DNA from: a virus | Lineage: Duplodnaviria; Caudoviricetes | Strand: one strand, 5' to 3' | Virus record (IMG/VR): IMGVR_UViG_2895847146_000001 | Span: 32,001 to 96,000 of that record | DNA: 64,000 nt | Shown: positions 10,572 to 59,900 of the stretch, piece after piece | Position numbering within the stretch: the first letter of the stretch is position 1 | Layout: each line of letters starts with the position of its first letter | Position numbers and translations under genes: made by a program | The notes under the pieces: generated by a model | The model's database searches: none | The model's input: only the letters and a program-made list of their open reading frames with translations | What the model was told of the DNA's origin: nothing

Positions 10572-10585
10572 CAAGCACTCAGATG

Positions 10586-10794: not shown

Positions 10795-10804
10795 TGCAAA
10801 TATA
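10795..10804 (-). promoter_or_regulatory. Bacteroidota -7 promoter box facing out of prophage 2
   Basis: Minus strand TATATTTGCA matches TAnnTTTG; no clear -33 box. Confidence 0.5.
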
Positions 10805-10860
10805 AACACCTTTTTAGCTTGGTTGTACACGGTTTGTTCTACTTATGTTATACAACTGTT

Positions 10861-30428: not shown

Positions 30429-30502
30429 TGGCACACCCTCGTTGGTTCGAACAACGCGCCCTCGGATTTGGAGTCCAAGGAGCCTCCACTGGCTCCGGGT
30501 GC
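30429..30502 (-). tRNA. tRNA-Trp(CCA), atypical
   Basis: Anticodon loop CTCCAAA, TTCGAAC T-loop, encoded 3' CCA; short D-arm and an acceptor mismatch at pair 7. Confidence 0.7.
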
Positions 30503-30510
30503 AAGTAAAG

Positions 30511-30582
30511 GGTGTTAGCGGGAGTCGAACCCTGTCCTCCGCATTCACAGTGCGGCGCTCTAACCAATTAAGCTACTAACAC
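30511..30582 (-). tRNA. tRNA-His(GTG)
   Basis: GTGTTAG/CTAACAC acceptor, CCGCA-CTGTGAA-TGCGG arm; T-stem 3' strand is one nt short. Confidence 0.82.
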
Positions 30583-30584
30583 AG

Positions 30585-30658
30585 TCGGGGTGGCAGGACT
30601 CGAACCTGCGGCCTCCTGCTCCCAAAGCAGGCATCATAGCCAACTAGACCACACCCCG
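30585..30658 (-). tRNA. tRNA-Pro(TGG)
   Basis: CGGGGTG/CACCCCG acceptor, CCTGC-TTTGGGA-GCAGG arm, GGTTCGAGTCC. Confidence 0.93.
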
Positions 30659-30732
30659 GGTTGGCTTATTTCGCGTGGGAGCCACCCACCAAAGAACGAG
30701 CCGCTTGCCTATACTGCGACGAAGGTGTTTGG

Positions 30733-30807
30733 TTTGACTGGTCGATTTCGATACGACAAATGTTGGCTTATCAAGAGCCAATTGCTTTACCTTTAAGCTA
30801 CAGTCAA
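30733..30807 (-). tRNA. Non-canonical tRNA-like element (undetermined isotype)
   Basis: TTGACTG/CAGTCAA acceptor and normal D-arm; extended anticodon arm TTGGCT-CTTGATA-AGCCAA; T-loop ATCGAAA. Confidence 0.6.
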
Positions 30808-30855
30808 ATCTTTACCCTACGCGAAGGACCACGACGTTAAGCGCCTACGGCGGTG

Positions 30856-30927
30856 TAGCGAAACACAGATTCGAACTGCGGACCCCTCGGTTATGAGCCG
30901 AGTACTCTACCCCTGAGCTACTTCGCT
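30856..30927 (-). tRNA. tRNA with CAT anticodon (Met or Ile2)
   Basis: AGCGAAG/TTTCGCT acceptor, CTCGG-CTCATAA-CCGAG arm, TTCGAAT. Confidence 0.88.
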
Positions 30928-35054: not shown

Positions 35055-36782
35055 TTAGGCCGTTGCCAGTGAGCCAACATTGGCCGCGCCGGGGCCGGCC
35101 ACCAGGCTTGCCAGCGTTCCGCCGTAGCCGACAAAGCGGATGGTGGTAATCGAGCTGTTGGCCTCCAGGTACACGGGCTTAATGCCGCCGCTCAGGCTGG
35201 TGCCGGTCAGGTCGAGGGTGGTAATGGCCCCGTCGTTCATCTTGAGCAGGTATTCCAGGTTCTGGGCCGTGGTGCCCGCCAGGTCCAGCGTACCGATGGT
35301 GGCTTGGTCCATCTTTATCAGGCAGGAGCCCGAGGCCGTAGCCGCCACGCGGGTGTGCGTCAGGTTCTTGATCTCAATGGTGGCGGCCGTCAGGCGCGGG
35401 TGCGACACCAGCGTATCAAGCTGCACGATTGGGGCCGTGAACGTAGAGCCCGCCGCCGTGTCCTGCTCCACCCCGTCGTTGTAGGTAATGGTAGTGTGGC
35501 TGTAGCCCATCACCCGCCACGAGCACCAGTTAGCCGTGTAGTCGGTGCGCGTCACGCGCAGGAAGTTCACGACATCCGTGTTGCAGGCCACGAAGGCGGT
35601 GCCCTTCTTGTTCAGATCCGGGTCGGACTCATCGGGCAGACAGTCCACATGAATATCCGTGAAGTTGATGTTCTTAGCGTACGTCTGCCCGGGCTGGGCC
35701 TGTGGGCTGGTCCCGGCCGAGATATAGAAGTTGTCGAAGGTCAGCCAGTAGTCGTGCGTGTAGCCGAACAGGTCCGAGATAAAGACATTCTCGATGAGCG
35801 AGGCGGCGGGCAGGATGCGCACAAACCAGCGGCCCCCGATGGCCTCAATCCGGCGCACGGTGATGTTCTTCTGCCCGCTGTAAGTCTTCATGGCGTCGTA
35901 CACGTTCGGCGCGTTCGGCGTATTGAGCAGGTTGTTCAGTGAGAAACTGTAGGGGTCGGAACTGCCGTTAATGGCAATCTTGTCATCGTGGGTGCCTTCT
36001 ACCGAGCAGTCCTCAATGACCATTCCGTCAATGGCCCCGTTCAGGTGGAAGCCATCGGTGTAGATTTGGCCTTCCTGGTTCTTGACGTGGCAGTTACTGA
36101 CCCGGCCATTCTTGATGTTTTGCAGGTGTACGCTTTGCACCTTGGCCCGCACGAGCTGCATGTTTTCCAGAATCAGCCCGTCCACGCCCCGGAAATTGAG
36201 CACCCCAGGCAAGCCCTCGGTAGCCGTCCAGGTCTGGTCAAAGCCCTTGGCGTTCCAACTGCCGCCGCTGATGCGGATGTTCTGGTCGATAATGGCGGCC
36301 GGGTTCCAGGTCAGGTTTTTGTTGCGGAAAATATCCTTGTTGGTGCCGCTACGCAGCATGGCCCCCACCGTCAGGTCGTCGGCCGTGGCAAGAATGGTCG
36401 TGTCGCTGTTGAGCAACAGGGTCCGCACGCTGGCTGCCTTGTTCCACGTCAGCGTTTTGGGGCCGTTCTGATCGAGAAACGCCTGTACGGCCGCTGTGGA
36501 ATCGTGAACGGGAATGTTGTCTTCCTGCGCCTGGCTATAGTACTGGTACGTAAAGGGGCGCATTTCTAACTGGCCGGGGTCCATCTCCGGCTCCGGGTCG
36601 ATACTGCTCAGCGTGGCCGTGGTACCGCCTCCTCCGGCCGGCCGCTGGGGCACGACAATGCTAATGGTGTTGGTCCCGTCAACAGCCCGCAGGGTAATGC
36701 GGCGCTTGTCCGTGTTGGGCGAGGTGTAGCGGCTTTTCCCATCCGACCCGGGAAAGGGCGCTGGTTCAAACGTTAAAGGCAT
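35055..36782 (-). CDS. Tail spike / polysaccharide depolymerase (pectin-lyase-like beta-helix)
   Basis: DSTAAVQA, TDGFHL, HDDKIAI and repeated beta-helix rungs. Confidence 0.8.
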   Translation of the reverse strand: MPLTFEPAPFPGSDGKSRYTSPNTDKRRITLRAVDGTNTISIVVPQRPAGGGGTTATLSSIDPEPEMDPGQLEMRPFTYQYYSQAQEDNIPVHDSTAAVQAFLDQNGPKTLTWNKAASVRTLLLNSDTTILATADDLTVGAMLRSGTNKDIFRNKNLTWNPAAIIDQNIRISGGSWNAKGFDQTWTATEGLPGVLNFRGVDGLILENMQLVRAKVQSVHLQNIKNGRVSNCHVKNQEGQIYTDGFHLNGAIDGMVIEDCSVEGTHDDKIAINGSSDPYSFSLNNLLNTPNAPNVYDAMKTYSGQKNITVRRIEAIGGRWFVRILPAASLIENVFISDLFGYTHDYWLTFDNFYISAGTSPQAQPGQTYAKNINFTDIHVDCLPDESDPDLNKKGTAFVACNTDVVNFLRVTRTDYTANWCSWRVMGYSHTTITYNDGVEQDTAAGSTFTAPIVQLDTLVSHPRLTAATIEIKNLTHTRVAATASGSCLIKMDQATIGTLDLAGTTAQNLEYLLKMNDGAITTLDLTGTSLSGGIKPVYLEANSSITTIRFVGYGGTLASLVAGPGAANVGSLATA

Positions 36783-36793
36783 AATAGGGAGAA

Positions 36794-37669
36794 TTAGCGA
36801 CCCAGGGCCGTATCCAGGTTTTGAACCAGGGTGGTAAAGTTTTGAATCTCAGCAGCAGACAGGGCTTGGCTAAAGAAATAAGCGCCTGTGAACACCTTAT
36901 CAGAAAACTGATTATTGTTGCGGCTGCCCAACTTGAAGTCAGAGCCAGTAAAGGTGATTCCCGGCAGAGCACTTACTTGACCGCCTCCTAGCAACGACCC
37001 GTTCTTGTATATATCATGGCGAGTCTCAGGCCGGTTGCCGACTGTCAATCCTGCCGACGAAGCCACGGCTTGGCCTTGCGTAGCTGGTCCCGCCTCAAAG
37101 AAGGCGCTTCCATTAAAAAATGCTTGCAATTCCACCAGTTGACCATTACTAAGCACGGCCGCTATTTCCGAGGCACTTTCTGAAATAGCTGAGGGCGTGT
37201 TGAAGGCCAGGGCGAAGTTGTCGGGGTCCAGCTCGGATACGTTCAGGTGGGTCTCCGCGTACTGCCCGTTACCGCTTTGGTCAAAGCTCATCACACTGTT
37301 GCCATGCACGGCCCCGTTGGGGAACGTGAGGCGGTACGCCGCATCCGTGTTGAGCGGATTGACCATGTTCAGGCTGTGCGACAAGGCCGTGCTGCCGCCA
37401 ATGGGATAGGCCGCCTTCAGCTTCGGGTAGATACCCGCTGATTTGAGCCCTTTAAAAAAGGCATCCCACGCATGGCCGCCCGTATCGGCGAAACCCGCAT
37501 TGGTTAGGTAGGTTTGTGCGTCCGGGTCGATGCTGGGGTTGCCGCCGCCGCCCGTGGCGGGCACGGCGGCCGTGGCAACGGCAGTGCCCCCCACGGGGCG
37601 TACTCGCAACGTGCCCGCCGTGGTGCCGGGTACCGTGAAAGGAATAGAGGGAGCGGGAGTAAAGGCCAT
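36794..37669 (-). CDS. Receptor-binding / lectin-like (LamG-like) fibre protein
   Basis: DPDAQ.YL...FFKGLK.AGIY.KL.A.YP.G domain and C-terminal ALSAAEI. Confidence 0.65.
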   Translation of the reverse strand: MAFTPAPSIPFTVPGTTAGTLRVRPVGGTAVATAAVPATGGGGNPSIDPDAQTYLTNAGFADTGGHAWDAFFKGLKSAGIYPKLKAAYPIGGSTALSHSLNMVNPLNTDAAYRLTFPNGAVHGNSVMSFDQSGNGQYAETHLNVSELDPDNFALAFNTPSAISESASEIAAVLSNGQLVELQAFFNGSAFFEAGPATQGQAVASSAGLTVGNRPETRHDIYKNGSLLGGGQVSALPGITFTGSDFKLGSRNNNQFSDKVFTGAYFFSQALSAAEIQNFTTLVQNLDTALGR

Positions 37670-39039
37670 TATGCTTCGGGCGAGTCGTTGATTTCAAGAG
37701 TGGTGCCGGGCTGCGGCGTCCAGGAAACTTCCCCGGTGGCCTCGTTCACCGTCAGGTCGGTGGGCAAGGCCGGCTCCTGTGCGGGAGCTTCGATGAACTC
37801 ATATTCGTAGTTCACCCCCTGGATTGGGGTCCAGCTTGCCAGCCGGGCGGCGCTAACAGTCAGGTCGTTCGGGGCCACTAGGTTGTTGCCGGTGGTTACC
37901 TGTGCCGGGGCGGTGTAGTCGGACGGCGAGGCGCCCAGGGCGCGGATGCGCAGGAAGTAGAGGGTCGAGGCTGTCAGACCTGTAATGGAAAGCTGCGTGG
38001 CGTTGGCTGCCGTCGATACTTTCGTGGAGGGGCTGAAGTTGGCGCTTAGGGCGTACTCAACCTCGTAGCCGGTATTGCCTGTCGAGGTGTTATTCCAACT
38101 CGTGCCAATGCTGGACGAGGACTGTGGCTCGGCCGTAAAGCCGGTGGGCGCTACCAGTTGCGGAACCCCGGCCAAGTTCACGGTGCGAATCACCGACCAT
38201 TCCGAGTTCGTGTAGTTCGGCAACTGCCCCTTGGCGCGGACGCGCACGTAGTAAGTCAGGCCGCCGGTCAGGCCGGTAATCGAGCCGCCGCCAAAGTCGG
38301 GCAGCACCTGCACGGTCTTGGTCGCAGCCGTTTCGGGAAAACTGGTGCTGGTGGAGGCTTGCAGCTCGTAGCCGTTGTTGTTGAGTACCGAATCCCAGGC
38401 GGCGGCAATGGTGCCCGCGCCGTTTTCGTTGGCCGAAAAGCCGCTTGGCGGGTCAAGCTGCACACCCTGCACGGTGAAGACAGCGCTACTCGTGGCGGGC
38501 CCGCCCGGCGTATATACCTTCACCGTGCCCGTGGTAGCAATAGCCGAAACGGTTGCCGTAAGGGAGGTTGCCGTGTTGTTAGTAATCTGGCCGACGGCCC
38601 CGTTGATTGCCACGGCCAGCGCGTTGCTCAGGTTGGTGCCCGTAATGGTGAAGGTCGAGCCGATCGAGCCGGTTGTAGGCGAGAACGAGGTAATGGTAGG
38701 GGCGGGCGTGGTACCTGCTCCCTCCACTATCTCCTTGATCTTGATGGACGTGGGCAGTTCCCAGGATACCACGGGGTTGCCCCCGGTGTAGACCTCGTAG
38801 GTTTCACCGTTCACGAGCTGCCCCAACACCCCGCCTGGGGTTTTGCCGCCATACTTACCGGTGTACACCGTCTTGGCGTTGATGCCCGTGGTGGCGTTGC
38901 GGGGGCCAATCAACACGATTTTATCCACGTTGACCACCCACGGGGCAGCGGTAATAGCACCGGAGCCGGAAGGCAAGGTTAAAGTTGTGCCCGTCCAGCG
39001 GACGAGCACAATCTTGGTGTTAATGATGGTTGAAGGCAT
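37669..39039 (-). CDS. IPT/TIG plus FN3-domain virion fibre protein
   Basis: PTITSFSPT.G..G..FTITGTN; two complete FN3 domains (GLT.G.TYYVRVRA); two C-terminal half repeats. Confidence 0.8.
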   Translation of the reverse strand: MPSTIINTKIVLVRWTGTTLTLPSGSGAITAAPWVVNVDKIVLIGPRNATTGINAKTVYTGKYGGKTPGGVLGQLVNGETYEVYTGGNPVVSWELPTSIKIKEIVEGAGTTPAPTITSFSPTTGSIGSTFTITGTNLSNALAVAINGAVGQITNNTATSLTATVSAIATTGTVKVYTPGGPATSSAVFTVQGVQLDPPSGFSANENGAGTIAAAWDSVLNNNGYELQASTSTSFPETAATKTVQVLPDFGGGSITGLTGGLTYYVRVRAKGQLPNYTNSEWSVIRTVNLAGVPQLVAPTGFTAEPQSSSSIGTSWNNTSTGNTGYEVEYALSANFSPSTKVSTAANATQLSITGLTASTLYFLRIRALGASPSDYTAPAQVTTGNNLVAPNDLTVSAARLASWTPIQGVNYEYEFIEAPAQEPALPTDLTVNEATGEVSWTPQPGTTLEINDSPEA

Positions 39040-39041: not shown

Positions 39042-40787
39042 TTAGTAGGAAAGCGTGAAATCAGCAGCCGGATTCGGGAAAGCAAACTCGTGGCGCACCC
39101 CGGCGCCGTCGTACCACGCCCCGCTGTCGCCCTTGTAGTCACCCGACCAGTTGACGTAGGAGGTCACCCCGCCGTCGGTGATGGTGAGCACCTGCGGGTC
39201 AGCGGTGGTGGACTTCTGGTTGAATTCGAGCTTGCGGGGGCCTTCGGTGGCCAGTACCATGCCATCGAGGCCGGTACCGCCGTTGTTGTCAGCGGCCAGG
39301 AAGTGGGAATAAGTGGGCAGCGGGGCCGTGGCCGTTACCAGAATCGTAGTGCCGAAGGCGGCGCCCTCAGCCGTGCCGTCGTAGGCTTTGGCCGTCAGCG
39401 TGTGGTTGCCCGCTGCCAGCGCCGAGGTGGTCGTAGAACCCGACGCGCCCGTAATGGTGCCGACCAGCGCGGCGCCGTCGTAAATGCGGATACTGGCTAC
39501 CGTGCCGTCGCTGTCCGTGGCCGTGGCCTGCACCGTTACCGTGCCGCCAGCGGCAATGCTGGTGGCGGTGGTGGCTGAGAAGGCGGTAACCACGGGAGCC
39601 AGGTTGGCGGCCGTCACGGTAATGTTCTTGCCTCCAGCAGTAATGGTTTCGCCGTTGTTGTCGAGGGCCCGGGCCGTGAAGACTTTGGTGCCGGCCGTCG
39701 CGGGCGTGTACACCAACTCGTAGAGGCCGCTGGCCTCCTTGACCGTCTTCAGGCCGAGAGAGTTGCCGTCAATCAGGAATTCTACCGAGTCCACGCCCGA
39801 CGGGGCCGTAGCGGCTACCTTGAGCACCACCGACTGGCCAGCCACCACCGAGGAGGCAGACAACGAGGTGGTGATGGTACTCGTGGCGGGCGCGGCGGTA
39901 ACAAAAATGTTGACCACGGACGAAATGGTGGTGTTGCCGTCCAAGTCGAGCACCTTGGCCGTCAGGGCGTGGTTGCCCGGGGTGGTTGGCTTCCAGTCAA
40001 AGGCATAGGGCGCGGTTAGTACCGGGTCATTCAGCGGCGTAGCGCCGTCGAAGAACGTTACCTCGTCCACGCCGTAGGTGCCAGCGGTTACTACGGCGGT
40101 CAGCGGCAGCGTGCCGCCCAGGGCCAGCGTAGTTACCGGCACGTTCAGCGTAACCAGCGTCGGCACCTGGTTAGCAGCCACCACACTAATGTTCTTGGGA
40201 GCCGAAACCGAGGCCGCACCCTGGCTATCGGTGGCTTTGGCCGTGAAGGTAAAGCCGCCAACAGCCGTCGGCTTGTACTCAATGGCATACGGCGGAGACG
40301 TGGCGCGGCCAATTTGCAGTTGGCCCTGGTAGAACTCCACCACGATAATAGAGCCGTCGGGGTCTGAGGCCGTGGCGTTCAGGGTGACTTTCTGGCCCAG
40401 GGTAATAGCGCCCACGCTTACGTCGAGCGTAACGACGGGCAGCTTGTTGTCGGTTTCGTCGGTGGTGTAGACCAGCACCCACACGCCCGCCTGGTACTGG
40501 TACCAATCGAGCTTGTTGCCCCCGCGCTTGTGCAACCAGAGCTGGTTTTCTACGCCGGCCGTGGCGGGAAACGCATTGGAGGGCGCCGTGATTTCGAAGC
40601 GGGCGCGCGGGGCCAGCACCTTGCGCTGGTCGGCCTGGGTCACCTCAAAGGTTTTGCCTGGATAGGTGGGGTGCGTGGGCGGGGCCGTGAATAGCCCTAC
40701 CCAATCATCACCGGGAAGTACCCCCTCGGGCAGAAAGCCAACCTCAAGCGGGGTTTGGCCTTCTAAGGCGGTTGGATCAAGCAGCAT
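39042..40787 (-). CDS. Ig-like repeat virion protein
   Basis: Four bacterial Ig-like repeats (ATASDPDGSI..VEFY...G..T.TAKATD..G). Confidence 0.82.
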   Translation of the reverse strand: MLLDPTALEGQTPLEVGFLPEGVLPGDDWVGLFTAPPTHPTYPGKTFEVTQADQRKVLAPRARFEITAPSNAFPATAGVENQLWLHKRGGNKLDWYQYQAGVWVLVYTTDETDNKLPVVTLDVSVGAITLGQKVTLNATASDPDGSIIVVEFYQGQLQIGRATSPPYAIEYKPTAVGGFTFTAKATDSQGAASVSAPKNISVVAANQVPTLVTLNVPVTTLALGGTLPLTAVVTAGTYGVDEVTFFDGATPLNDPVLTAPYAFDWKPTTPGNHALTAKVLDLDGNTTISSVVNIFVTAAPATSTITTSLSASSVVAGQSVVLKVAATAPSGVDSVEFLIDGNSLGLKTVKEASGLYELVYTPATAGTKVFTARALDNNGETITAGGKNITVTAANLAPVVTAFSATTATSIAAGGTVTVQATATDSDGTVASIRIYDGAALVGTITGASGSTTTSALAAGNHTLTAKAYDGTAEGAAFGTTILVTATAPLPTYSHFLAADNNGGTGLDGMVLATEGPRKLEFNQKSTTADPQVLTITDGGVTSYVNWSGDYKGDSGAWYDGAGVRHEFAFPNPAADFTLSY

Positions 40788-42511: not shown

Positions 42512-45500
42512 CTACAGCATTTCCCGGAATACAATCCGGTCCGGGTCTTTCATCTTGGCGCCGACCACGGCGTACTTGGCCCGCTTGGTGGCGGCCTTGC
42601 TGATAGCGGCCATCCGTTTGGCGGCTTGGTCGTGGTTCAGCGAGCGGAAGTTCTCAATATCCTGTAACAGAATCTGCTTCAGCACTTTGCCGCGCAGTTC
42701 CAGGAACCTGTAGAACGTTTCATCACTCATGGGCCCCTCCTTCCACTGGCCGGCCACCCCGGCAGAAGCGGGTAGCTGCCCTTCGGCCTGCTGGAAGGTG
42801 AAGGCCACCGTTGTGCGCTGGTTGGGCACGGGAATGCCCACCCCTTTTTCCGTCAACACGTCCCAGATGCGTTGCGTGGCCGCGTCGCGGTGCGTGGGCC
42901 GGCCGCTCGTCAAGCGGTCTGATTGCACTTTCATGGGCTCGCCCAGCGCGTCGAGGGCCGGGCGCATGCCCGAGCGGAACACGGGCAGGTCTTGCTGCAC
43001 CACTTCCCAGGCCCGCTTGGCTTCTACTTTGTCCGTGTCGGTGAAGTCCTGCAGGTCGCGGCTGAACTGGCGTAGCAGGCCCGAGGCGGGAACGTAGCCC
43101 GTGACCGAGTAGCCCAGGGTGCGCTCCAGGTAGGTCTGCATCTTTTTCAGGCCGCTGGTTTCTCCGCCGTAGCCGCCCGAGCTGGTCAGCGCGTCCAGGG
43201 CTTCGGAAATGTTCTTGGTGGCCGTCGTTTCCACCACCATGCCCATTGTGCGGAAAACCAGCAGGCTGGCCCCGCTCACGTAGGAGTCGTCGGTTTCGGG
43301 GTTGGCCTTCTCGTACAGCTCGCGGTCTTTCATGGCACCGACCACGCCGAGCACGAAGAACAGCGGGCTTTCCTTGTAGCTGACCCACTTGCTGCCGAGC
43401 TTGACCGCGTAGGGCCGCCAGCCGTTTTGCAGCAGCTGGTTGCGCTGGGCCGAGTCGCGCGGGCCGGGGCCGCTGATTTCCAGGTTATCGTCGTCGTCCT
43501 CGCGGTGCGTGGCGGCGTAGAGGCCCGCCAATAAGGCGGTGCCCATCGTGGCCTTGGCCAGTACTTTGGCCCGCTCCTCGGCCGTGTAGGGCCGGTATTG
43601 GGAACCCTGACGCTCGAAGCCGATACCACCCTTGGCTGCCCGCACGAAGCCGTGCAGGGTGTAGTCGAGGTAGGCATTGGCCACGTTGGTAATGACGCGG
43701 GAGAAAGGCACCACCCACTTGCCCAGCGGACCAACCCGCTCTACTACGTTGCTTACGCCGGTAAAGACCACGCCCAGCGTGCCTTCCATTTCGCCGTTGA
43801 ACACGGCCCGCGTGGCGTACTGGCGGGTATCTTCCTGCATCGGCATGGGGCGGCTCTGCTCCATTAGTTCCCACACGCGCAATACCGCGTCTCGCCCCGT
43901 GCGGCCTTCGGCCGTGGCCGTAGCCACCGCGTCGGCGTGGCGCTGGGCTGAGTTGCCCAGCTTTTCGTGCACGGCCTCCCAGGTGGCGCGGGAAGGGTCT
44001 TGGCGGCCTTCCTTGGTGGCTTCTACGGCCGCCAGCTCCCAGGCCCGCATTTCGCGCAGGCCCGACTGGTAGAACACGTCCGAGGCTTTCAGCAGGCGGG
44101 GCACAAACTTGAGCACCCCGGCCAAGCGGTTGCCGCCCAGGGCCGCCACTTCCAGCGTGTTCGGCACGTCGTACTTGCCCAGCTGGCCCGAAGGTTCGTA
44201 GCCGGTCTGCAGTACTTCGGTAGCCAGCCGGGCGCCGGCCTTCAAGCCGGCTGCCAGCCCGCGCACCGGGGCCGTGACCTTGCCGCCCTGGCGGAGTACG
44301 TTACCGGTGGACAACAGGGCCTCCATGAAGGTCTGGTGGGTGTTGGCCGTGAAGTTGACCAGGTGCGTAGCGTAGGAGCTGAGCACGTTGGCGTACCACA
44401 TGGCCTGTGAGAGGTCCAGGAAGCTCACGCCCTTAATGCCCTGCAGAAACAGGTTCAGCTCGCGCACGGCCTTCTCCTTGTCCCGGCCGACGGGCGCCTT
44501 CTCTACGGCCGCGCCCAGCGTGCGCAGGCGGGCCACGTCCTGCACCGTCAAGTCGGGTAGGTCAGTGGCTTCCGCAATCAGGCCAATGACGCGACTGTCG
44601 GACAGGGGCGAAAGATTGAGCAGTTCCAGGGTTTTGTCCAGGGCGGTCTTGCCCTTTTTGCCCAGGCCCACCCGCACCCGTAGCGAGTACATGCGGTTGA
44701 GGATGCTTTCGCGCTTGGCGGTGAGCTGGCGCTGAAACTCCCTCTCCAGGGTGGCGGCGTACTCGCGGGCGGTGGCCGGGTCCAGGCCCGCGTCGGCCAC
44801 GAGCTTTTGCACCAGCGTGCGGCCTGTATCTTCCTGCTCGCTGACGTGTAGGCGCACGATGGCATCGAGCTTCAGGCTCATTTCCCGAAGGCCCTCCCCC
44901 ACTACGGCTGCCGCCTGCTTGTTGCTGTTAGGCTGACCGATTATCTGGTCTGCATAGCCGCGCAGCAGTTCCAGTAAGTCCGATTTCTGGTCGTCCGTCA
45001 GGGCCAGCTTCTGGATCTGGGCTTCTACTTCCTGCTTGCTGCGCTCCCACACATCGGCGTATTCAGCCTTGTTACGCAAGGCAGCTACCAGCGCATCCCG
45101 GTTGCTGATTTTCTTCTTGCCGGGGGCGGGTGGCAACGATTCGCGGACTTTGCCCATCAAGGTGGACAGAAGTTGTTTCACCGGGTCGAACTGGCCCGGG
45201 GCGGTGGGGGTGACTTCCGCCAGGATACGGGCGGCCAGCAGACGGGCCTGCTCCTGCGCTATCTGGTCGTCAATGTCCTGGGCAGAGTTCAAGCCCGTGG
45301 CATCGCCGCCGTCGGCCAGATACTGCTGCGTGGCTTGCTCGTAGGCGTCGCGCAGGTAGGGCTTGGCCTTGGCGCCGAAGTCGCGCACGAGTTTGGCGGC
45401 CACGTCAGCAAACTTGCGGGTGCCGGCTTCCAAGTGAAAAACGGCACCGACAATCAGCTGAGGCGGAATAGGTGTGGAGAAGGCCATTTTCTTGAATGCC

Positions 45501-48500
45501 TTCTTCAGCTCCTCGTATTTCTCGCGGGTGACCAGCTTGTTCTTCGAGCCGTAGGAAGCGGGCTCGGGCTGCGCGGCGGCTGGCGCCACCTTGGCCTTGG
45601 CCGCCTCTACGGCTTTGCTTTTCAGCGTAGCCTCCAGCACCTCGCCCTGCACCTGGCGGGCTTGTTTGGCCACGGCGCGGCCCTTGGTGCGGGTCTTTTC
45701 CTTGACCTCCTTCTGCTGGCGGGCTACTTCCTTGCGGGCCTGGTACACGGCCTGGCGTGGAGAGTAGCGGGCAATGGCGCGGTTGGCGCTGATAGCGCGG
45801 CCATACTCAGTGTTGGCCAGGGCCTTCTCCGTGTCGATAGTCAGCGCCTGCTGCATGTATTGGGCGGCCAACTCGTCGTTGCCGGCTAGGTCAGCCTCGA
45901 TGCCCAGGCGGTCCAGTTCGTCGGCCACCTTGTCGCGCACGAGCAGGCGCACATCGTCGGGCAGCTGCTGGTCCACGTCCAGGGCAATATCGTAGGCTTG
46001 GGCAATGGTTTTGCCCAGAATGGCCGCGTCCGCCTGGGCCTCCGATTCACTCAGGGGCTTGGGCGTGTAGTTGAGCACTTCCGATTCCAGGCGGGCTTTG
46101 CGCACCTCGGAAAGGGACGGGTTTCCCAGCTGGTTGACAACGGTAGCCCGCTCACCGGGCTTGGCCTGGGTGCGGCTCGTCGGCGCAGAAGCGGCCGGGG
46201 CCTGCTTGGGGCGAAACACACCCTCCTGCTTCAGCACTTGCCGCACCAGCGGGCGCAGCTGCTCGTCGGTGGCGTCGTCCTCGGTCAGGCCAGCGGCCCG
46301 GAGCTTGGCAATGGTCAGCTTGGTATTGACCACGCCCAGCTTGATAAGGGCGCGGACCATCTTCTGAATGGCAGCGGATTCCTCGGCCGAGAAGGACGGA
46401 ATACCCAGCAGCGAGGATTGGGCCACGCGGGAGCCTTTCTTGCGGGCAGCCTTGAACTCGGCCAGCGCGTCGGAAAGCTCGGCTTTGGCCGCTACGTTCT
46501 GCTCGCGCAGGCTGGGCGTTACTTTTTGGGCTGGCCCTGCGCTTCCCGTGCCAGGGCTTGCAGGGCGCGGAACGCTGCCCGTTTCTGTTCCGGTGTTTTC
46601 TCCTGAAACGCTTCCTGCTTCTGCTCTTTGGTCAGAATTACTGCTTTGCTGAATTGGTCTGTTTGCTCGCTCATCGACAAGGGCTTTTAGTTTGGTGGCG
46701 GTAGTTTCATCTACGCCGAATACGAAAGAATAGCCAGCCGCATCTGTGTAGGTGTCGGCCATACGCTGGTAATCTACGATTCCGTCGTTGGAAACGAAAT
46801 CATTAATGGCCTGCTGCACGTTGGCGTCCTCGGCAATCAAGGCGTCAATGTCGGCGTCGCTGAGCGGCACTTCCTCGCGGCTGCGAATGGAAGCCGTGTC
46901 CGGGTTGCCCAAAAAGTCCTCGGCCGATACCCGCTCCTTCTTGGTCGCTAGGCCGGTGCCGGTGCTGACCTCGGCATAGCCGGTTTCGACTATCTCCTGA
47001 ATCTTATTCAGTAGCGCGTCGGCCCGCAGGGTGTTGCGGCCTTCCTGAATGTCCTTGGCGGCGGCGGCAGCGTCGCGGGGGTTCAGGCGTTTGCCGTTGA
47101 CCTCAATGCCCAGGGCCACGAAGTCCCCTCCCCCACGGCCTGCCAGCGTCAGGGCCGCGTCGCGCACGGCGGGCGCACGGTCACGGGCCGGTACATGGCC
47201 CTCAACGGGGCTGGTGCCGGTAACCGTGTTGGTACGGGTCACGCGCTTGCCACCACGGGTGATTTTCACCGACAAGTCATTGCCCACCTCAAAGTCGAGG
47301 CCAGCGGCTTTCGCCAGCTTAGCAAGTTCAGCGCGGGCAGCTTGGCCTTTCGCCCCCTTCTTCTCACGGGTAGAAAGCTCCTTGTAGCCCGCTAGGTCGT
47401 CCAGCACACCGTTGACGCGCTCCTGCTCGGGCGTGAGGGCGGCGGCTACAGGCTGGGCCGAGGCTTCTTGCGGGGTGGCGGGTTCTTCGGTTGGGATGGT
47501 CTGCTCATCGGCTACAGGGGCAACCGGTGAGGGGCCAGCAGGAACTTCGGCCTGGGTGACAGCGCCTGCGTCAGCATTGCTTTCGGGCACATCGCCAGTG
47601 CCAGCCGCTGCCTGCTGGCTATCGTATAGCCCCTCCAAGTCGGCACTAGCAGCTTCGGGTGTAGCTGAGTTAGGGCCTCCTGTACTTTGCACTGCTGGAA
47701 GAACAGTCTCTCCGCTTGCTGTTGATTGAGCATCTATTTGGCTAGTTGGTTGTTCTGCAATATACTCCACCGGCACGGCGGTATCCACGGGTTGGCCGGA
47801 ATTATCTTCGCCTACTACACGAGCCATCTTGCCATCGGGCGAGAGGGCTACTACCTGGGCGTTGGGGGCCAATACCTGCCCATCCGGGCGTACAATCTGC
47901 ACGGGGGCTGGGTAGGCTTGCTGGGCAGCGGCTTGTTCTTCGGGCGTCACGTCCTGCGGCACCTCGAACTGCGGAGCGGTGGCCTGCGCATCCTGCACGG
48001 GCGCGTTCTGTGGGCCACCCGCGAAGCTACCAGCCGCGCCGCCGAGCAACGCCCCGGCAACGGCCTGTTCCAGTGGGTTTTTGACCAGCGCATCCATTGC
48101 GGAAATGCCGTAGCCCTTCTCCCCTTCCGGACGCAGGGCGTCGGCTAGGAGCTGAGCGCCGCCCTCGGCTTCGCCTTGCAGAAACTCGGTAGCGCCTTCG
48201 CCCACGGCCCCGGTAGCGGCCCGTCCGGCAAACTTAGTCACGACGGCGGGCATAACTTTGCCCACGGCCTGGGCGAGTGCTGATTGCGAGATCTTGCCTT
48301 TGCCGTAGCGCAGCGCCTCTTGCAGCAGCTTGCTTTGGAGCACCTGCGTCGCGGCTTTATTCTTGGTAATGAAGCCCAGGCCCACTTCTTCCAACATGCC
48401 GACCACCGGGGCCAGCAACACGGCTGTCGTCGCCGCTTCGCCCTCGGAGATACCGGCCTGCCGGGCGGCATCCTTGGTCGAGGATGCGCTTAGGCCCATA

Positions 48501-49426
48501 CCCACGGCCGAGGCCGCACCGGGGCCACCGAGGGCACCGGTCACGCCCACCTGCACCAGACTGCCCGCGCCGCCACCGAGTAGCGCCGCCCAGGCTTGTC
48601 CGTTGCCGGGGTTGTCGAGAATGCTTTGCTTGGCAGCGGCCGAGGTGGGCTTGGTGGCTGCGTCCGCCAGTTGGCGGTACTGCTCCCCGAACGCATCGGT
48701 GGCCTTGCCGCCCGTCACGTAGCGCGAGCCGAGCGGGTCGGTCACGTCGCCCGTAGGCAACTGCATCCCCTGCCACAAGTCACCGGCCAGGTCTACCAGG
48801 TTGCCTACTACACGCCGAGCACCGGGCGTACCGGCTGCGTTAAAGAGAGTCTTGCCCAGCGTGTCGAGAAAACCATCTTCTTCGGCCGTGGCTTGGTCAC
48901 GGGCGCGTAGTTCCTCGATAGAGGGCGCAGGCAGGCCCGCATTGATTTCCTCGTCGCCGGGCACGGCTTGGATGGCGTTGCGGCCCGTGGGCATGTCCGT
49001 GTCGCCGTTGTAGCCACTCAGCGTAATGGGGAGCGGCTGTTTAATTTGCTCGTCGGCGCTGGTGGGTTGTGTGGGCACCTCGGCCGGTACATCTCCTACC
49101 CCAACGGCGCCGGGGGCAACCTCCTGGTTTTCATTTTCGAGCCCCGGAAAGGGTTCATTCGAATAAGTAGGCGCAGAATCGTTGCCAGAAAGTCCTTTTT
49201 TTTTTAGGCCGAGGTCGGTAGCAAAGTCGTCAAAACTAATCGTAAACTCCTTGCGCCTTTCAGTAAGTGAAGTGTGCAGTTGACGTAGATTATCCTCGTC
49301 CTGCATGTCCTGCTCGAACGTGGGATAATCAAGGGTGAATTCCTTTTCCTGCTTGCGCAAGTTACTCCACAGGCGCTTGAGAGCGGGCTCCTCGGTAGCC
49401 GGAACTTGTTGGTTTTCGTCAATCAT
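42512..49426 (-). CDS. Large internal virion / DNA ejection protein (2304 aa)
   Basis: Ala/Gly-rich N-terminal region (EGATEFLQ), long helical body, C-terminal F...G.GP...GWRPYAVK...WVSY domain like that of podoviral ejection proteins. Confidence 0.7.
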   Translation of the reverse strand: MIDENQQVPATEEPALKRLWSNLRKQEKEFTLDYPTFEQDMQDEDNLRQLHTSLTERRKEFTISFDDFATDLGLKKKGLSGNDSAPTYSNEPFPGLENENQEVAPGAVGVGDVPAEVPTQPTSADEQIKQPLPITLSGYNGDTDMPTGRNAIQAVPGDEEINAGLPAPSIEELRARDQATAEEDGFLDTLGKTLFNAAGTPGARRVVGNLVDLAGDLWQGMQLPTGDVTDPLGSRYVTGGKATDAFGEQYRQLADAATKPTSAAAKQSILDNPGNGQAWAALLGGGAGSLVQVGVTGALGGPGAASAVGMGLSASSTKDAARQAGISEGEAATTAVLLAPVVGMLEEVGLGFITKNKAATQVLQSKLLQEALRYGKGKISQSALAQAVGKVMPAVVTKFAGRAATGAVGEGATEFLQGEAEGGAQLLADALRPEGEKGYGISAMDALVKNPLEQAVAGALLGGAAGSFAGGPQNAPVQDAQATAPQFEVPQDVTPEEQAAAQQAYPAPVQIVRPDGQVLAPNAQVVALSPDGKMARVVGEDNSGQPVDTAVPVEYIAEQPTSQIDAQSTASGETVLPAVQSTGGPNSATPEAASADLEGLYDSQQAAAGTGDVPESNADAGAVTQAEVPAGPSPVAPVADEQTIPTEEPATPQEASAQPVAAALTPEQERVNGVLDDLAGYKELSTREKKGAKGQAARAELAKLAKAAGLDFEVGNDLSVKITRGGKRVTRTNTVTGTSPVEGHVPARDRAPAVRDAALTLAGRGGGDFVALGIEVNGKRLNPRDAAAAAKDIQEGRNTLRADALLNKIQEIVETGYAEVSTGTGLATKKERVSAEDFLGNPDTASIRSREEVPLSDADIDALIAEDANVQQAINDFVSNDGIVDYQRMADTYTDAAGYSFVFGVDETTATKLKALVDERANRPIQQSSNSDQRAEAGSVSGENTGTETGSVPRPASPGTGSAGPAQKVTPSLREQNVAAKAELSDALAEFKAARKKGSRVAQSSLLGIPSFSAEESAAIQKMVRALIKLGVVNTKLTIAKLRAAGLTEDDATDEQLRPLVRQVLKQEGVFRPKQAPAASAPTSRTQAKPGERATVVNQLGNPSLSEVRKARLESEVLNYTPKPLSESEAQADAAILGKTIAQAYDIALDVDQQLPDDVRLLVRDKVADELDRLGIEADLAGNDELAAQYMQQALTIDTEKALANTEYGRAISANRAIARYSPRQAVYQARKEVARQQKEVKEKTRTKGRAVAKQARQVQGEVLEATLKSKAVEAAKAKVAPAAAQPEPASYGSKNKLVTREKYEELKKAFKKMAFSTPIPPQLIVGAVFHLEAGTRKFADVAAKLVRDFGAKAKPYLRDAYEQATQQYLADGGDATGLNSAQDIDDQIAQEQARLLAARILAEVTPTAPGQFDPVKQLLSTLMGKVRESLPPAPGKKKISNRDALVAALRNKAEYADVWERSKQEVEAQIQKLALTDDQKSDLLELLRGYADQIIGQPNSNKQAAAVVGEGLREMSLKLDAIVRLHVSEQEDTGRTLVQKLVADAGLDPATAREYAATLEREFQRQLTAKRESILNRMYSLRVRVGLGKKGKTALDKTLELLNLSPLSDSRVIGLIAEATDLPDLTVQDVARLRTLGAAVEKAPVGRDKEKAVRELNLFLQGIKGVSFLDLSQAMWYANVLSSYATHLVNFTANTHQTFMEALLSTGNVLRQGGKVTAPVRGLAAGLKAGARLATEVLQTGYEPSGQLGKYDVPNTLEVAALGGNRLAGVLKFVPRLLKASDVFYQSGLREMRAWELAAVEATKEGRQDPSRATWEAVHEKLGNSAQRHADAVATATAEGRTGRDAVLRVWELMEQSRPMPMQEDTRQYATRAVFNGEMEGTLGVVFTGVSNVVERVGPLGKWVVPFSRVITNVANAYLDYTLHGFVRAAKGGIGFERQGSQYRPYTAEERAKVLAKATMGTALLAGLYAATHREDDDDNLEISGPGPRDSAQRNQLLQNGWRPYAVKLGSKWVSYKESPLFFVLGVVGAMKDRELYEKANPETDDSYVSGASLLVFRTMGMVVETTATKNISEALDALTSSGGYGGETSGLKKMQTYLERTLGYSVTGYVPASGLLRQFSRDLQDFTDTDKVEAKRAWEVVQQDLPVFRSGMRPALDALGEPMKVQSDRLTSGRPTHRDAATQRIWDVLTEKGVGIPVPNQRTTVAFTFQQAEGQLPASAGVAGQWKEGPMSDETFYRFLELRGKVLKQILLQDIENFRSLNHDQAAKRMAAISKAATKRAKYAVVGAKMKDPDRIVFREML

Positions 49427-56979: not shown

Positions 56980-59900
56980 TCAGGGGGCTAAGGGCAAGAA
57001 AATCAGGTCGGTGCTTACCAGTTGGGCCTTTTCCGTGCCGGTGTAGGAAAGCGTCACATCGAGAGTGGGGCTTTGCAGCTCCCGGCCCAGGTGCAGGGCG
57101 GTGGCGGGCGTCAGGTTCGGGGTGTTTTCGTCCCGACGGAAGGCTGCCCGCCAGATACCCTTCTCCGTGACCATCCACGGGGCCAGGATGCGGCTTTGCT
57201 GGCCCAGGTCGTTGGATACGACCACGCTCCACTTCTGCGGGCTGACCACGGCAAGGGCCTTCCAGGTTTTGGAGGCTTCCGAGCCTTCGTTGACGGCTGC
57301 CGTCACCTGCATCGTTACCGGCTTGCCAAAGAAGCGCAGGCGGTCATGCTCGGGGCGGTGCTGCCAGGGCAACCCGTTTTCGAAGCTCAGCAGGTGGTCG
57401 TCATAGGCCATGCCCGCTTCGGCCGGCAAGTCCCAGAGGTCGGCAAACTGGCCGGCCCGTTCGCTGAAGACCAGGGCCACGGGCGGATTGCCGTTGGCCT
57501 CGCCAAAGAACAACAGGTAGCTTTCCGTGCCTGGGTCGTAGGCCCCGTGCACGGTGGCGCCGGCGTACTGGGCTGCCAACTCCCGCACCCGCGCCCGGGC
57601 GGTTTTGTCTTTGGCCAGCGGAGAGGCCCCGTTTTGGGCGTAGCGAATCACTTCACGTCGGCGCTGGCAGTAGTAGAAGACGCGGCCGGCAAACTCGCTC
57701 ACGGTAGCCGCGTGCTCGGGCAGGCAGCCATAGCCGCCGCGCAGGGCGTTGCCGCCGCCAATGACGCCCTTGGTCAGGGCCAGCGTGGTTTGCCCGTCGG
57801 CCTGCTGCAGGGCGGTCTGGCCGAGGTAGCGGGACTCGGCCCCGTTTTCCTGCACGGCCAGCAGCAGCGTGCCCTCGGCCTGGGTCTGGTCGGCTACTTC
57901 CAGGGCCACAATGGCGCCCTGCTCCTGCGGCAAGTCGTCCTGCGCCGTCGCGTCCCAGACGGAGAGGCCCATCAGGCGGGTGCCCTGGACCTTCACGCCC
58001 GAATAGCGCAGCAGCGAGAAGCGGCGGATCTGCTCGCCGTTGATAATGACGGGAATAGCCCGGCCGCGGGACGCATCGAGCCAGATATTGGCCTGGGTCG
58101 CCGTCGGGTTCATGGCCTCGTAGCCGTTGAGCAGGAAGGTGTCGCCGGTAAGCACGCCGCTGGTGGTGGTGTAGCGGCGCTGCTGAAAGCCTCCCTCGGG
58201 CGTGAAGCGGGCAATCGGGAAGCGCGGGCTACGCTCGTACAGCACCGACTCTTCGGAGAAGGTGACGGGCCGGTAGATTTCTACCCGGGGCTGGGGGCTG
58301 CTGATTTCGTCGCCGGAAGGGCTGACGAACTGGTACAGGGCCAGCGGCGACAGGGCCAGATACTCGCCGCGCTGGTAGAGAATGGGGTAGTCGGCCGTAG
58401 GGTCGAGGTCGGGAAAGCGCACCCGGTCTCCGGGCTGAAACTCGTAGCCGCGGCCACTGGTCTGCAGCGTGGTCATGGAAACCCACAGCGACTTCATCAG
58501 GGACGTGTTGTTTTCGTCCACGGGCACGAGGTCGGCCGAGCCGTCGGCCTTGTCGCCCCGGTACTGGCGGAGCTGGTCGGTGATAAACTGCTGAAAGAAA
58601 CGGATGGTGCGGTTCTTGGAAAGCAGGATGGCGTAGGTATAGGCCCAGGCCGGAATCTCGGCCGTCTGGTCGAGTTCGGCCGTGTTCAGCTTCCAGGACA
58701 CGTTGCGGGCGGCCAGTAGGCCCACCTGCTGACGGGGAATGTTCAAGTCCTTCAGGGACGTGGCGCCCGCGGTGCGGCCCAATCGGTCATAGAAGGCCAC
58801 GCCCAGGCGGTAGGACGTGTTTTCGTGAAAGGTTTCCTGGCCGTCCAGGGTAGGCGGGGGCTGCGTGCCGAAGGGGGCAATCTGCTGGTTGGGCAGCGGG
58901 GTGACAATGCGGTTCTCGCCCAGCTGCTCGTCGGGCGCAAAGTCTACAAATACCTGCTGGTAGGTCTTGGGCGTAGTGGCCACCACGGCGTAGTACACGC
59001 CATTGTTGAGGGCCACCTGCTGGTAGGTGCTGCCCGCATCCGGGTAAGCGCCGGAAGCCACGGCGTAAAAGGCAGTTCGCACGCGCGACTCCTGGTGGGT
59101 GCCGCCGTCGGGGTCGCCTACCTGCTCCACGTAGTCGGTATCGACCTGATACACGGTGCCCGTCGTGTTACCGGTGGGCGCACCGGTGCCCGTAATCAGG
59201 TCCAGCGACCAGTTGACGGGCGTTACCGTCAGGCTTTCCCTGCAGTCTCCAACGAAGATATGGCTACGGGCCACGGTCATGGCGCCGGCCTCAATAGGAA
59301 TGGACTCGTAGAGTTTGGCGGCGTCCAGGGCGGGAATGGCTTCGCCGGTGGTCACGCCGTAGAAGTCATAGGAGGTCGGAAACAGGCCGCTGACGCGCTC
59401 CAGGGCGGCGGCCACCTCCCACTGCGGCTCGTCGTCGCGGCGCACCAGCACGCGCACGGTTTGCACCAAGGGCGGTACCTCCGTAGGCAGTGTGACGTGG
59501 ATGTAGTTGCGCGGGTCGGCTTCGACGGCGGCGGCCGTGGTGATACGACGGGGCAGCACGGGCGAATAGGAGCCCAGCGGGGTACGCTCGCCGTTGGTGT
59601 ACTCGTACTGCAGGGCCACCTGCCACGCATTGCCCGCAATCCGGTTCAGGGTGCTGCGCACGTCGGATACGTTGGTGTTGGCCAGGCGCTCCACCCCTAC
59701 CGTGCCCTGGTGGGGCTGGCGCACCACATGCAGGGCCAGCGGGTCGGCCTGGAGTACGGCGGGAGCAAACTCCGCTGGCTTGCCCACGGGCAGGGCGCGA
59801 ATCTCCTTGTTGGCGTCGAGCCAGAGCAGCAGCCCGTCCAGGAAGCAGACGTTCTTGGTCACGGTGGCGGGCACGGCTAGCCCCTCCCATTGCAGCACCA

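Follow-up and report, generated by a model that had tools for sequence, protein, structure and literature searches.

A truncated Ig-like fibre end and two receptor-binding proteins with homologous N-termini in a Hymenobacter prophage: a possible docking joint

How might a phage fibre that appears to carry no receptor-binding body of its own obtain one, when the two genes that follow it encode unrelated host-surface modules whose first residues resemble each other? This question is raised by a fibre locus of a prophage within a Hymenobacter genome, contained in the 64-kb stretch of DNA analysed here (the window). It is the combination of a truncated fibre end with matching N-terminal segments on the two downstream products, gp291 and gp575, that makes docking of both proteins on the fibre tip probable. 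We put at about 0.45 the probability of our main reading, in which the fibre is a body-less adaptor and these segments (hereafter plugs) dock on its truncated C-terminus by strand complementation or augmentation.

Gene layout and fibre architecture

All the features described lie on the minus strand. A 581-aa stalk protein with four Big_7 Ig domains (39042..40787; Pfam Big_7, E 3.5e-29, four stretches) is encoded directly upstream of the 456-aa adaptor fibre (37669..39039), which comprises an N-terminal anchor, a TIG domain, two FN3 domains and a truncated Ig-like C-terminus. The next two genes are gp291 (36794..37669), with a plug, a GGGG linker and a ConA-like lectin body, and gp575 (35055..36782), with a plug, a GGGG linker and a GH28-like beta-helix body. 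The start codon of gp291 reaches one base into the fibre stop codon in a TAATG stop-start overlap (37667..37671), and 11 nt separate gp291 from gp575.

The anchor domain of the fibre (residues 1-110; 38710..39039) is common to P0002, a 829-aa protein of G069 and a 1029-aa protein of G110, and is weakly recognisable in b415 of G147 (z 5.0, 2/2000 shuffles), G147 being another Hymenobacter genome. It is followed by an IPT/TIG domain (residues 114-186; 38482..38700; Pfam PF01833, E 2.3e-7), a first FN3-like domain (about residues 195-290; 38170..38457; 44.3 bits on our own FN3 model) and a second FN3 domain (residues 297-385; 37885..38151; Pfam fn3 at residues 297-370, E 3.8e-9). The two FN3 domains match each other with z 14.4, in agreement with the first-pass annotation, which had placed two such domains ahead of the half repeats at the fibre end.

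Over residues 1-272 the fibre is 56% identical to P0002. In all three fibre relatives found (P0002, 752 aa; G069, 829 aa; G110, 1029 aa), a distal body is fused to the anchor-TIG-FN3 stalk, in the order FN3-GGGG-body in the case of G110. The body is absent only from the 456-aa fibre, after which come two body genes with homologous N-termini; this split architecture is a single occurrence, seen in none of the three relatives. Judged by eye from gene content, the surroundings of the G069 and G110 relatives look like remnants rather than full prophages.

The C-terminal 100 aa or so of the 581-aa stalk recur in two other genomes, in the gene directly upstream of anchor-bearing fibres (z 11.4 against a 199-aa ORF of G069 and z 7.0 against b260 of G147, with 0/1000 shuffles in both comparisons). 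The N-terminal domain of the fibre is probably seated on the C-terminal domain of this Big_7 stalk.

The truncated fibre C-terminus

The fibre ends in two half repeats of 26 aa each, the first at residues 389-414 (APNDLTV...NYEYE; 37798..37875) and the second at residues 425-450 (LPTDLTV...TTLEI; 37690..37767), and their similarity, noticed on first reading, is borne out by z 7.4 (0/2000 shuffles). Every peptide quoted in the first-pass annotation is found unchanged in the sequence. Their proposed identity as strands A-B-C of FN3 domains, on the other hand, was not confirmed; the half repeats themselves gave the following results. Neither half nor the 73-aa tail matched Pfam fn3 (PF00041) at E<=10, z values against the fibre's own FN3 domains do not exceed 2.2, the halves score 6.0 and 0.9 bits on our own FN3 model, and their best match among solved structures, an FN3 consensus protein, has an E of 1.4.

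The C-terminal 73 aa match Pfam He_PIG (PF05345) marginally, with 24.7 bits at a cut-off of 24 (E 3.3e-5). Half repeat 2 carries the LPxGL..TG..(S/G)(W/G)TP motif of He_PIG-type Ig domains, for which there were 187 database matches, and alone it scores 21.1 bits on Pfam He_PIG (profile positions 46-81 of 96) and 32-34 bits on our own He_PIG-like model (positions 51-76). By these profile comparisons, the C-terminal domain is He_PIG-like and not FN3. No further He_PIG-like segments were found within the 64-kb window.

In He_PIG-like database proteins the LPxGL motif occurs once per 83-94-aa domain, whereas the two copies in the fibre lie 37 aa apart. Similarly, our own model of 107 positions aligns fibre residues 394-450 to positions 11-71, against about 10-102 for two other ORFs of the genome that carry the domain. 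From this motif spacing and model coverage, the fibre units are truncated. A complete He_PIG domain was not found in the C-terminal 73 aa, with Pfam profile coverage limited to positions 20-78 of 96. The assignment of the strands that the truncated domain is missing is ambiguous, and each half already has an F-like strand (NYEYEF and TTLEI).

Receptor-binding bodies and their N-terminal plugs

As had been proposed from the sequence at the outset, the bodies of gp291 and gp575 are unrelated. The AF2 model of gp291 (pLDDT 82.7, pTM 0.79) is a ConA-like jelly roll, for which Foldseek returned 231 matches at E<=0.001, headed by trans-sialidase lectin-like domains and domain 4 of a GH43 arabinanase. 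A sequence search with gp291 gave 47 proteins at E<=0.001, gp291 itself counted, and the homologue b415 scores 27.1 bits on Laminin_G_3, just below the cut-off of 27.6. The gp575 protein matches Pfam Glyco_hydro_28 with 28.7 bits (cut-off 22.9; E 9.1e-7) at residues 168-275, covering only positions 68-172 of the 324 in the profile. Going by the structural model, gp291 is a ConA-like lectin, and from the Pfam match gp575 is a predicted GH28-like beta-helix glycanase.

The N-termini of the two proteins are alike over about 40 aa and then run into GGGG (gp291 residues 1-43, 37541..37669; gp575 residues 1-53, 36624..36782), a resemblance that was also part of the first-pass annotation and that stands at z 7.1 (0/2000 shuffles). 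The similarity extends from residue 3 onward, each plug beginning at the initiator Met, a pattern that speaks for duplication of an N-terminal module and against two accidents. In the AF2 model the gp291 plug has a pLDDT of 51-58, against about 90 for the body, with strands at residues 9-11, 19-26 and 29-33, and in 32 aligned gp291 homologues the body begins at DPDAQ, without the plug. From both model and alignment, the gp291 plug is best described as an add-on to the body. No other plugs were found in the 5.9-Mb genome, and 79 viral loci with members of the gp291 family yielded none.

The further suggestion that the plugs resemble the strands missing from the fibre survives only in part. For gp575 there is a weak likeness, its plug scoring 6.6 bits on the F-G part of the He_PIG-like model, the hairpin that comes after the LPxGL motif and that the truncated domain lacks, a value reached by 3/3000 shuffles and by 2/4000 genome N-termini on a sub-model built from proteins picked solely by similarity to the socket. 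For gp291 the likeness fails, as its plug did not match the Ig-like model (of 500 shuffles, 448 reached its score on the N part, 472 that on the middle part and 242 that on the C part). On our own FN3 model, neither plug gave anything above about 2 bits.

Related loci in G147 and possible docking elsewhere

In G147, the two gp575 homologues a559 and b582 carry the plug on their N-termini (z 4.4 with 3/2000 shuffles for the gp575 plug against a559, and z 13.8 for the other), and one of these N-termini is also matched by the gp291 plug (z 3.8). When 507 ORFs were ranked with a plug profile, the two N-termini took the top two places. At the level of sequence, the plug is a conserved N-terminal module of the gp575 family, with related plugs on gp291, gp575, a559 and b582.

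In the L116 locus of G147, the gap directly ahead of the lectin and beta-helix genes is occupied by an 88-aa ORF. This ORF is similar to half repeat 1 (z 4.0, 8/3000 shuffles) and follows our own FN3 model up to the F strand, and the plug hairpin can alternatively be aligned to its C'-E region (z 2.5); used as a query, the ORF did not retrieve the fibre from the prophage's genome at E<=0.001. In the second locus, L117, the lectin is fused to the fibre anchor (z 5.0) and a plug-bearing beta-helix gene is present, and profile and pairwise tests found no socket-like segment there. All three loci keep a lectin gene followed by a beta-helix gene, and the lectin protein might therefore serve, in place of the fibre, as docking partner of the beta-helix plug.

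More broadly, the plugs could dock away from the fibre tip, with the 581-aa stalk, the baseplate or, for gp575, gp291 as partner, and the half repeats, packed mutually or between chains, would then form a small terminal cap that plays no part in docking. Two three-strand halves could in principle make a six-strand sandwich, and the conserved gene order, the L117 plug without a recognisable socket and the dissimilarity of the gp291 plug to any part of an Ig domain all fit such an arrangement. We nevertheless consider it rather unlikely, as it leaves unexplained why this fibre alone is in a body-less state and why the lectin, fused to the anchor in L117, here bears a plug akin to that of the glycanase.

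One socket or two

An alternative reading of the C-terminal 73 aa is a single domain without its last strands, with one socket in place of two. The last 73 residues would then be a single He_PIG-like domain missing only its last one or two strands, with half 1 as its N-terminal part and half 2 as its central motif, and the two receptor-binding proteins (RBPs) would compete for one site. With one site and one plug per fibre chain, lectin or glycanase would be found on different fibres or chains of one virion.

The Pfam He_PIG match runs over both halves as a single stretch (tail residues 9-66 on profile positions 20-78 of 96), as does the alignment of fibre residues 394-450 to our own model, and yet the whole-domain score is not raised by half 1 (31.8 bits for both halves, against 32.3 bits for half 2 alone). 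Half 1 reaches 5.0 bits on the N-terminal He_PIG-like sub-model (5/500 shuffles), as a single domain would have it, but does equally well on the central sub-model (5.9 bits, 0/500 shuffles) and, given the z value of 7.4 between the two, clearly duplicates half 2. In terms of length, the 37-aa motif spacing differs little from the 42 consensus columns that separate the domain start from LPxGL in complete domains, and both halves plus one F-G hairpin amount to about one domain, whereas two plugs for two units make the simpler count. Both readings are compatible with the sequence, and we regard a single shared site as unlikely.

Integrity of the locus

A recombination scar in a decaying prophage, in which the half repeats would be Ig-domain leftovers from a cassette insertion and the fibre non-functional, would account for a split that occurs once and in no relatives, and the G069 and G110 fibre relatives do lie in apparent remnants (by eye). 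It is very improbable, considering that none of the three reading frames is broken and that they follow one another closely (1-nt overlap, 11-nt gap), that the plugs are similar from residue 3 after the initiator Met, in the manner of a duplicated N-terminal module, and that the prophage retains integrases, replication and lysis genes and large structural genes. Frameshifting or read-through at TAATG that would yield fibre and gp291 as one polypeptide, with the domain complete, suggested by the -1 frame of gp291 relative to the fibre and the one-base overlap, is scarcely credible, given that TAATG overlaps are a common coupling arrangement, that direct reading of the sequence found no slippery heptamer (X XXY YYZ) upstream of the fibre stop and that gp575, which lies beyond a stop codon and a spacer of 11 nt, would be left unexplained.

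Proposed joint

Docking in trans on the fibre is favoured, and partly supported, by the fused bodies in all three fibre relatives, by the body-less fibre with two body genes and by the conservation of the plug. In this main reading, the 456-aa protein would be a virion-anchored adaptor fibre without a receptor-binding body of its own, and its last 73 residues, truncated and Ig-like (He_PIG/FN3-like), would be unable alone to close a beta-sandwich. The downstream genes would each supply a host-surface module of a different kind, gp291 a ConA-like lectin and gp575 a GH28-like beta-helix glycanase; in both, the module comes after a homologous N-terminal segment that is about 40 aa long and rich in strands, with a Gly4 hinge in between. 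The plugs would most likely dock non-covalently, adding strands to the incomplete sheet of the fibre, and this would produce a tip, branched or mixed, with modules open to exchange by recombination. Binding of the plugs to the fibre, fold completion as its mode, the stoichiometry and the pairing of plugs with halves are steps that we infer. More tentatively still, we propose that an Ig-like domain split between genes serves as a non-covalent joint, with one or two incomplete units and two unrelated RBPs bringing the missing strands, and that such a swappable tip is perhaps a widespread mode of fibre building not described before.

If the joint is real, it would provide a compact rule, readable from sequence, for pairing tip proteins with fibres, namely a truncated Ig unit at the end of one gene and complementary strands at the start of the next. 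Such a rule would improve host-range annotation for uncultured phages and would offer a small docking pair for modular phage and tailocin engineering, beside the KP32 conserved-peptide system. It would also explain why one stalk is fused to a body in some relatives and has two detachable bodies in another.

Comparison with known systems

The first-pass annotation knew of no description of this docking mode, which was too strong, as branched RBP systems with N-terminal docking peptides (PMC13352976) and phage-tail joints by beta-sheet augmentation or complementation (PMC13730344) are already published. No paper describing an Ig-like domain divided between a fibre and its tips came up in our literature search.

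In the KP32, K11 and KP34 Klebsiella podophages, RBP1 bears a branching domain and RBP2 a conserved N-terminal peptide, of 29 aa in KP32 (PMC13352976). The predicted docking here is like that of these phages in that an anchored primary protein has a docking site, the separate RBP consists of a short N-terminal peptide and an enzymatic body, and the bodies are swappable (PMC13352976). A conserved N-terminal peptide on the secondary RBPs is likewise present in gp291, gp575, a559 and b582. Unlike in the KP32-type system, the primary protein here is without its own body and two secondary RBPs have homologous plugs; docking would take place at the very C-terminal end, on a truncated Ig-like repeat, and each plug leads into a Gly4 hinge. 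Pfam and PHROGs give only TIG, fn3 and He_PIG on the fibre, and a T4gp10-like branching domain was not found.

In the Pseudomonas podophage A1002, with GP4 and VP1 cited alongside it, there are repeated docking sites on a carrier, where fibre modules form an augmented beta-sheet, and a split nozzle in which two proteins rebuild one canonical domain, one giving strands absent from the other (PMC13730344). The carrier in that phage is a nozzle-rope protein whose 11 sites accept dimers of one or two fibre proteins (PMC13730344). In the fibre described here, by contrast, the sites would number no more than two, would lie at the tip and would serve two unrelated RBPs, a comparison made by description.

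In chaperone-usher pili, an Ig-like fold without its last strand is completed by the N-terminal extension of the next subunit. The plug differs in being about 40 aa long (two or three strands) and not a single strand, and the partners would be heterologous tips and not a polymer; as a chaperone and usher are not expected in a phage tail, the proposed joint would at most work like the pilus system without being a member of it. The tailspikes of Ackermannviridae bring several RBPs of different specificity into one branched complex via N-terminal modules, but these are dedicated domains on the tailspikes themselves, unlike the truncated Ig repeat on a body-less fibre described here. In an engineered system attributed to Dutta, Batori, Koide and Koide (in Protein Sci in 2005), two FN3 fragments reportedly reassemble with high affinity in vitro, which makes a split-domain joint physically plausible.

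Gene order and the fibre end

The window is a portion of contig 7 of a 5.9-Mb Hymenobacteraceae genome, the named relatives being Hymenobacter perfusus and one Hymenobacteraceae MAG. The prophage spans from about 9 kb through the window end and encodes an Erf-like annealing protein, a DnaB-like helicase, an M15 endolysin and very large structural proteins. Integrases of 431 aa and 476 aa are located on both sides of a tRNA-Ser gene (10585-10670), and this region (9079-12291) probably marks where the prophage attaches, or else consists of two stacked elements. Four clustered tRNA genes (Trp, His, Pro and Met; 30429-30927) separate the replication/early region of the prophage from its lysis genes. 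On the minus strand, genes for proteins of 2304, 330 and 581 aa are followed by the 456-aa fibre (37669-39039), the lectin-like tip gene gp291 (36794-37669), the beta-helix tip gene gp575 (35055-36782) and the lysis genes. The 2304-aa protein (42512-49426) has only a weak DarB-like PHROG match (E 1.2e-6), and the 581-aa protein carries four Big_7 Ig domains. Elsewhere, a 1072-aa protein (56980-60198) matches a PHROG described as 'virion structural protein', and its match to the C-terminal domain of the crassvirus muzzle is sub-threshold (E 0.00098, 20 bits, cut-off 27).

The fibre consists of a 110-aa N-terminal domain, hereafter the anchor, a TIG domain (residues 114-186), an FN3-like domain (approximately 195-290) and a Pfam FN3 domain (297-370), the two FN3-like domains resembling each other (z 14.4). 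All the peptides quoted in the first-pass annotation were found in the sequence, and its description of the fibre C-terminus was borne out, as this consists of two similar 26-aa segments, half 1 (residues 389-414) and half 2 (residues 425-450; z 7.4, 0 of 2000 shuffles). The N-terminal 40-50 residues of gp291 and gp575, the putative plugs, also resemble each other (40% identity, z 7.1, 0 of 2000 shuffles), and GGGG follows both, as had been stated. These features of the fibre and the plugs are real and non-random. On the likeliest reading, the fibre has no body of its own and acts as an adaptor, its truncated Ig-like end taking up two detachable receptor-binding proteins (RBPs), gp291 and gp575, by way of their homologous N-terminal plugs. 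That the plugs would complete the fold, how many sockets there are and which plug pairs with which socket are what we infer. AF2 modelling of the fibre without an alignment was uninformative (pLDDT 38).

Identity of the half repeats

The half repeats had been taken for incomplete FN3 domains. This assignment did not hold up, since no Pfam fn3 match was obtained at E<=10, comparison with the fibre's own FN3 domains gave z <=2.2, and the closest solved structure was an FN3 consensus protein with E 1.4; FN3 membership is thus not demonstrable from these comparisons. The 73-aa fibre tail, the putative socket, matches Pfam He_PIG instead (E 3.3e-5, 24.7 bits against a cut-off of 24), and half 2 contributes most of the score (21.1 bits). 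When 1.84 billion representatives were searched exhaustively with HMMER, 187 proteins matched the socket at E<=0.001. Arrays of an LPxGL motif were found in 9 of the 10 that were inspected, and in most of these proteins the motifs are 83-94 aa apart, that is, one motif per Ig-like domain. The fibre has two LPxGL-type motifs spaced by 37 aa, and its Ig-like units therefore appear truncated.

A model of the full He_PIG-like domain was built from 338 units in 124 of 149 proteins among the matches listed. Half 2 falls at model positions 51-76 and half 1 at 54-79, and the fibre as a whole covers positions 11-71; the two other ORFs with a He_PIG-like domain in this genome both cover positions of approximately 10-102. 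As the model derives from the socket matches, its agreement with half 2 involves circularity, from which the Pfam match is free. Both halves already have an F-like strand. Half 1 scored 5.0 bits on the N-terminal part of the model (5 of 500 shuffles), and therefore the tail may be one domain without its end, instead of two sockets.

A possible whole version of this domain was seen by eye in another genome, where the first ~620 bases of locus L114 (G099:C105, plus strand) encode a fibre-like ORF adjoining a distant relative of the gp575 beta-helix. This ORF has a seemingly complete, unscored He_PIG-type domain with a variant motif, SW(S/T)P; if so, other Hymenobacter phage fibres employ this domain type intact.

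Relatives of the fibre

Of the 59 proteins matching the fibre at E<=0.001, the anchor was present in P0002 (752 aa) alone, the others having only TIG or FN3 in common with it. Genome searches yielded two more anchor-bearing proteins, of 829 aa in genome G069 and 1029 aa in genome G110, along with several matches beginning at fibre residues 33-77, and the single metagenome locus with a fibre relative was identical to that of G110. Two unpublished genomes among these matches, G125 and G126, are used for no conclusion here. Single-protein scans of viral, genome and metagenome data with the fibre retrieved no relative, scans with alignment A2 nothing beyond the G069 and G110 loci, and tblastn searches of 50,697 phage records with the fibre and with gp575 were negative. 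Each of the three relatives continues in frame from the anchor-TIG-FN3 stalk into a large body. The junction in G110 runs FN3, GGGG, body, an order shared by gp291 and gp575 with the plug in place of FN3.

Families of the two tip proteins

The bodies of gp291 and gp575 are indeed unrelated, the former being a ConA-like jelly roll and the latter scoring above the Pfam cut-off for Glyco_hydro_28. With 32 homologues, AF2 predicted the jelly roll confidently (pLDDT 82.7), and Foldseek agreed. The gp291 family comprises 47 proteins at E<=0.001, gp291 counted, and 374 relatives were found in viral contigs. When 33 of the 47 were aligned, the body was seen to begin at a DPDAQ motif and no homologue carried the plug. 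The segment preceding DPDAQ is highly variable (64 gene copies from 60 of the 79 viral loci retained), ranging from short peptides, often with glycine-rich linkers, to GWG repeats, Ig domains and long fusions, and a profile search of the 79 viral loci detected neither a plug nor a He_PIG-like unit. The family evidently swaps its N-terminal adaptors freely. In those viral contigs (L033-L111), where the family is common, the body start reads DPDAQAF...YPFVGGTA, and the adaptors include peptides of 13-30 aa with glycine linkers as well as tandem fusions of two bodies.

The gp575 family is much smaller. A search of 5.8 billion proteins returned gp575 itself only, and profile A4 of the family detected no member in viral contigs or in a sample of 400 other genomes from across the order. 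Two clear homologues, a559 in locus L116 and b582 in locus L117, were both found in G147, whose genus is the same; at E<=1e-8, matches occurred in 3 of 274 genomes, this one counted. In both loci, a lectin gene precedes the beta-helix gene, as in the window. The N-termini of a559 and b582 are alike (z 13.8) and rank as the top two of 507 ORFs for the plug profile. That of a559 resembles the gp575 plug (z 4.4, 3 of 2000 shuffles) and the gp291 plug (z 3.8, 11 of 2000), and that of b582 resembles the gp575 plug more weakly (z 2.9, 37 of 2000) and the gp291 plug not significantly (z 0.6).

It is possible that the plugs dock elsewhere, with the halves of the fibre merely capping it, and L117, in which no socket-like segment was found, argues for this to some degree. 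The lectin of this locus, b415, is fused to a domain like the fibre anchor (z 5.0). Segments of b415 and of the N-terminus of the L116 ORF a406 that looked socket-like by eye received no support from shuffles. In L116, an apparently unannotated 88-aa ORF (9793-10059, minus strand) occupies the intergenic gap directly upstream of the lectin gene, after a coiled-coil fibre gene. Its similarity to half 1 gave z 4.0 (8 of 3000 shuffles), and it aligns with strands B to F of a custom FN3 model but stops before the G strand; a genome-wide search with this ORF failed to recover the fibre at E<=0.001. Its relationship to half 1 is only suggestive.

The plugs

Returning to the detachable-tip reading, the plugs had been proposed to resemble the strands missing from the fibre, which held weakly for gp575 and failed for gp291. 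The full-domain model was divided into three parts, N-terminal, central and a C-terminal F-G hairpin. On the F-G part the gp575 plug scored 6.6 bits, equalled by 0 of 500 shuffles and, in a larger test, by 3 of 3000 shuffles as well as 2 of 4000 N-termini of this genome. This test is not circular, because the model proteins were picked by the central motif alone. The scores of the gp291 plug on the three parts were equalled by 448, 472 and 242 of 500 shuffles, respectively; it is linked to the hairpin reading only via its homology to the gp575 plug. Against the custom FN3 model, both plugs gave approximately 2 bits with unconvincing placement. In AF2, the gp291 plug is predicted as a low-confidence hairpin (strands 19-26 and 29-33) with a short strand at 9-11 (pLDDT 51-58), and the glycine linker is disordered. 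The plug profile had no convincing match among solved structures (best E 1.6), and ESM Atlas matches to gp575 residues 1-55 all scored below threshold.

The plugs both begin at an initiator Met and are alike from residue 3 onward, which a recombination scar would not readily explain. The start of gp291 overlaps the fibre stop codon by one base (TAATG), but a frameshift fusion of the two is unlikely, as a slippery heptamer is absent before TAATG and gp575 sits behind a stop codon and an 11-nt spacer.

The two-plug profile had no further match anywhere in the whole genome. Across 274 genomes of the family, it matched 19 others at 19-23 bits, and two of the three matches inspected lie in the C-terminal ends of large secreted proteins, which we take from their appearance to be T9SS sorting domains. 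The third, in genome G264 (E 8.9e-4 for that genome), is a 48-codon stretch (L019; G264:C40:11584-11727, minus strand) strikingly like the start of the gp575 plug (PFPxSDGxSRxTS). It has neither a start codon nor a body behind it, of the two ORFs that border it, one looks by eye large and of outer-membrane type and the other acetyltransferase-like, and it could be chance or a remnant.

Known systems and a possible joint to the stalk

In KP32-type phages, a second RBP is attached via a conserved 29-aa N-terminal peptide bound to the branching domain of the first (PMC13352976). In phage A1002, fibre dimers and the repeated docking sites of a rope protein form augmented beta-sheets, and one nozzle protein provides strands that another is without (PMC13730344). 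In crAss001, the proximal fibre protein is resolved in the hub for its first 26 residues only, the remaining fibre joints being unresolved in the structure (PMC10172136). Full-text literature searches found no description of a fibre and its RBPs sharing the parts of one Ig-like domain, and a fibre with two plugged tips would be a variation on the known branched receptor-binding architectures.

One step further in, the final ~100 aa of the 581-aa protein (39042-39350) reappear in the gene directly upstream of the anchor-bearing fibres in G069 (L013 9572-10171; z 11.4) and G147 (upstream of b415, L117 6844-7626; z 7.0). This conserved two-gene arrangement suggests a stalk-to-fibre joint, and the C-terminus of the 581-aa protein is possibly where the N-terminal domain of the fibre docks.
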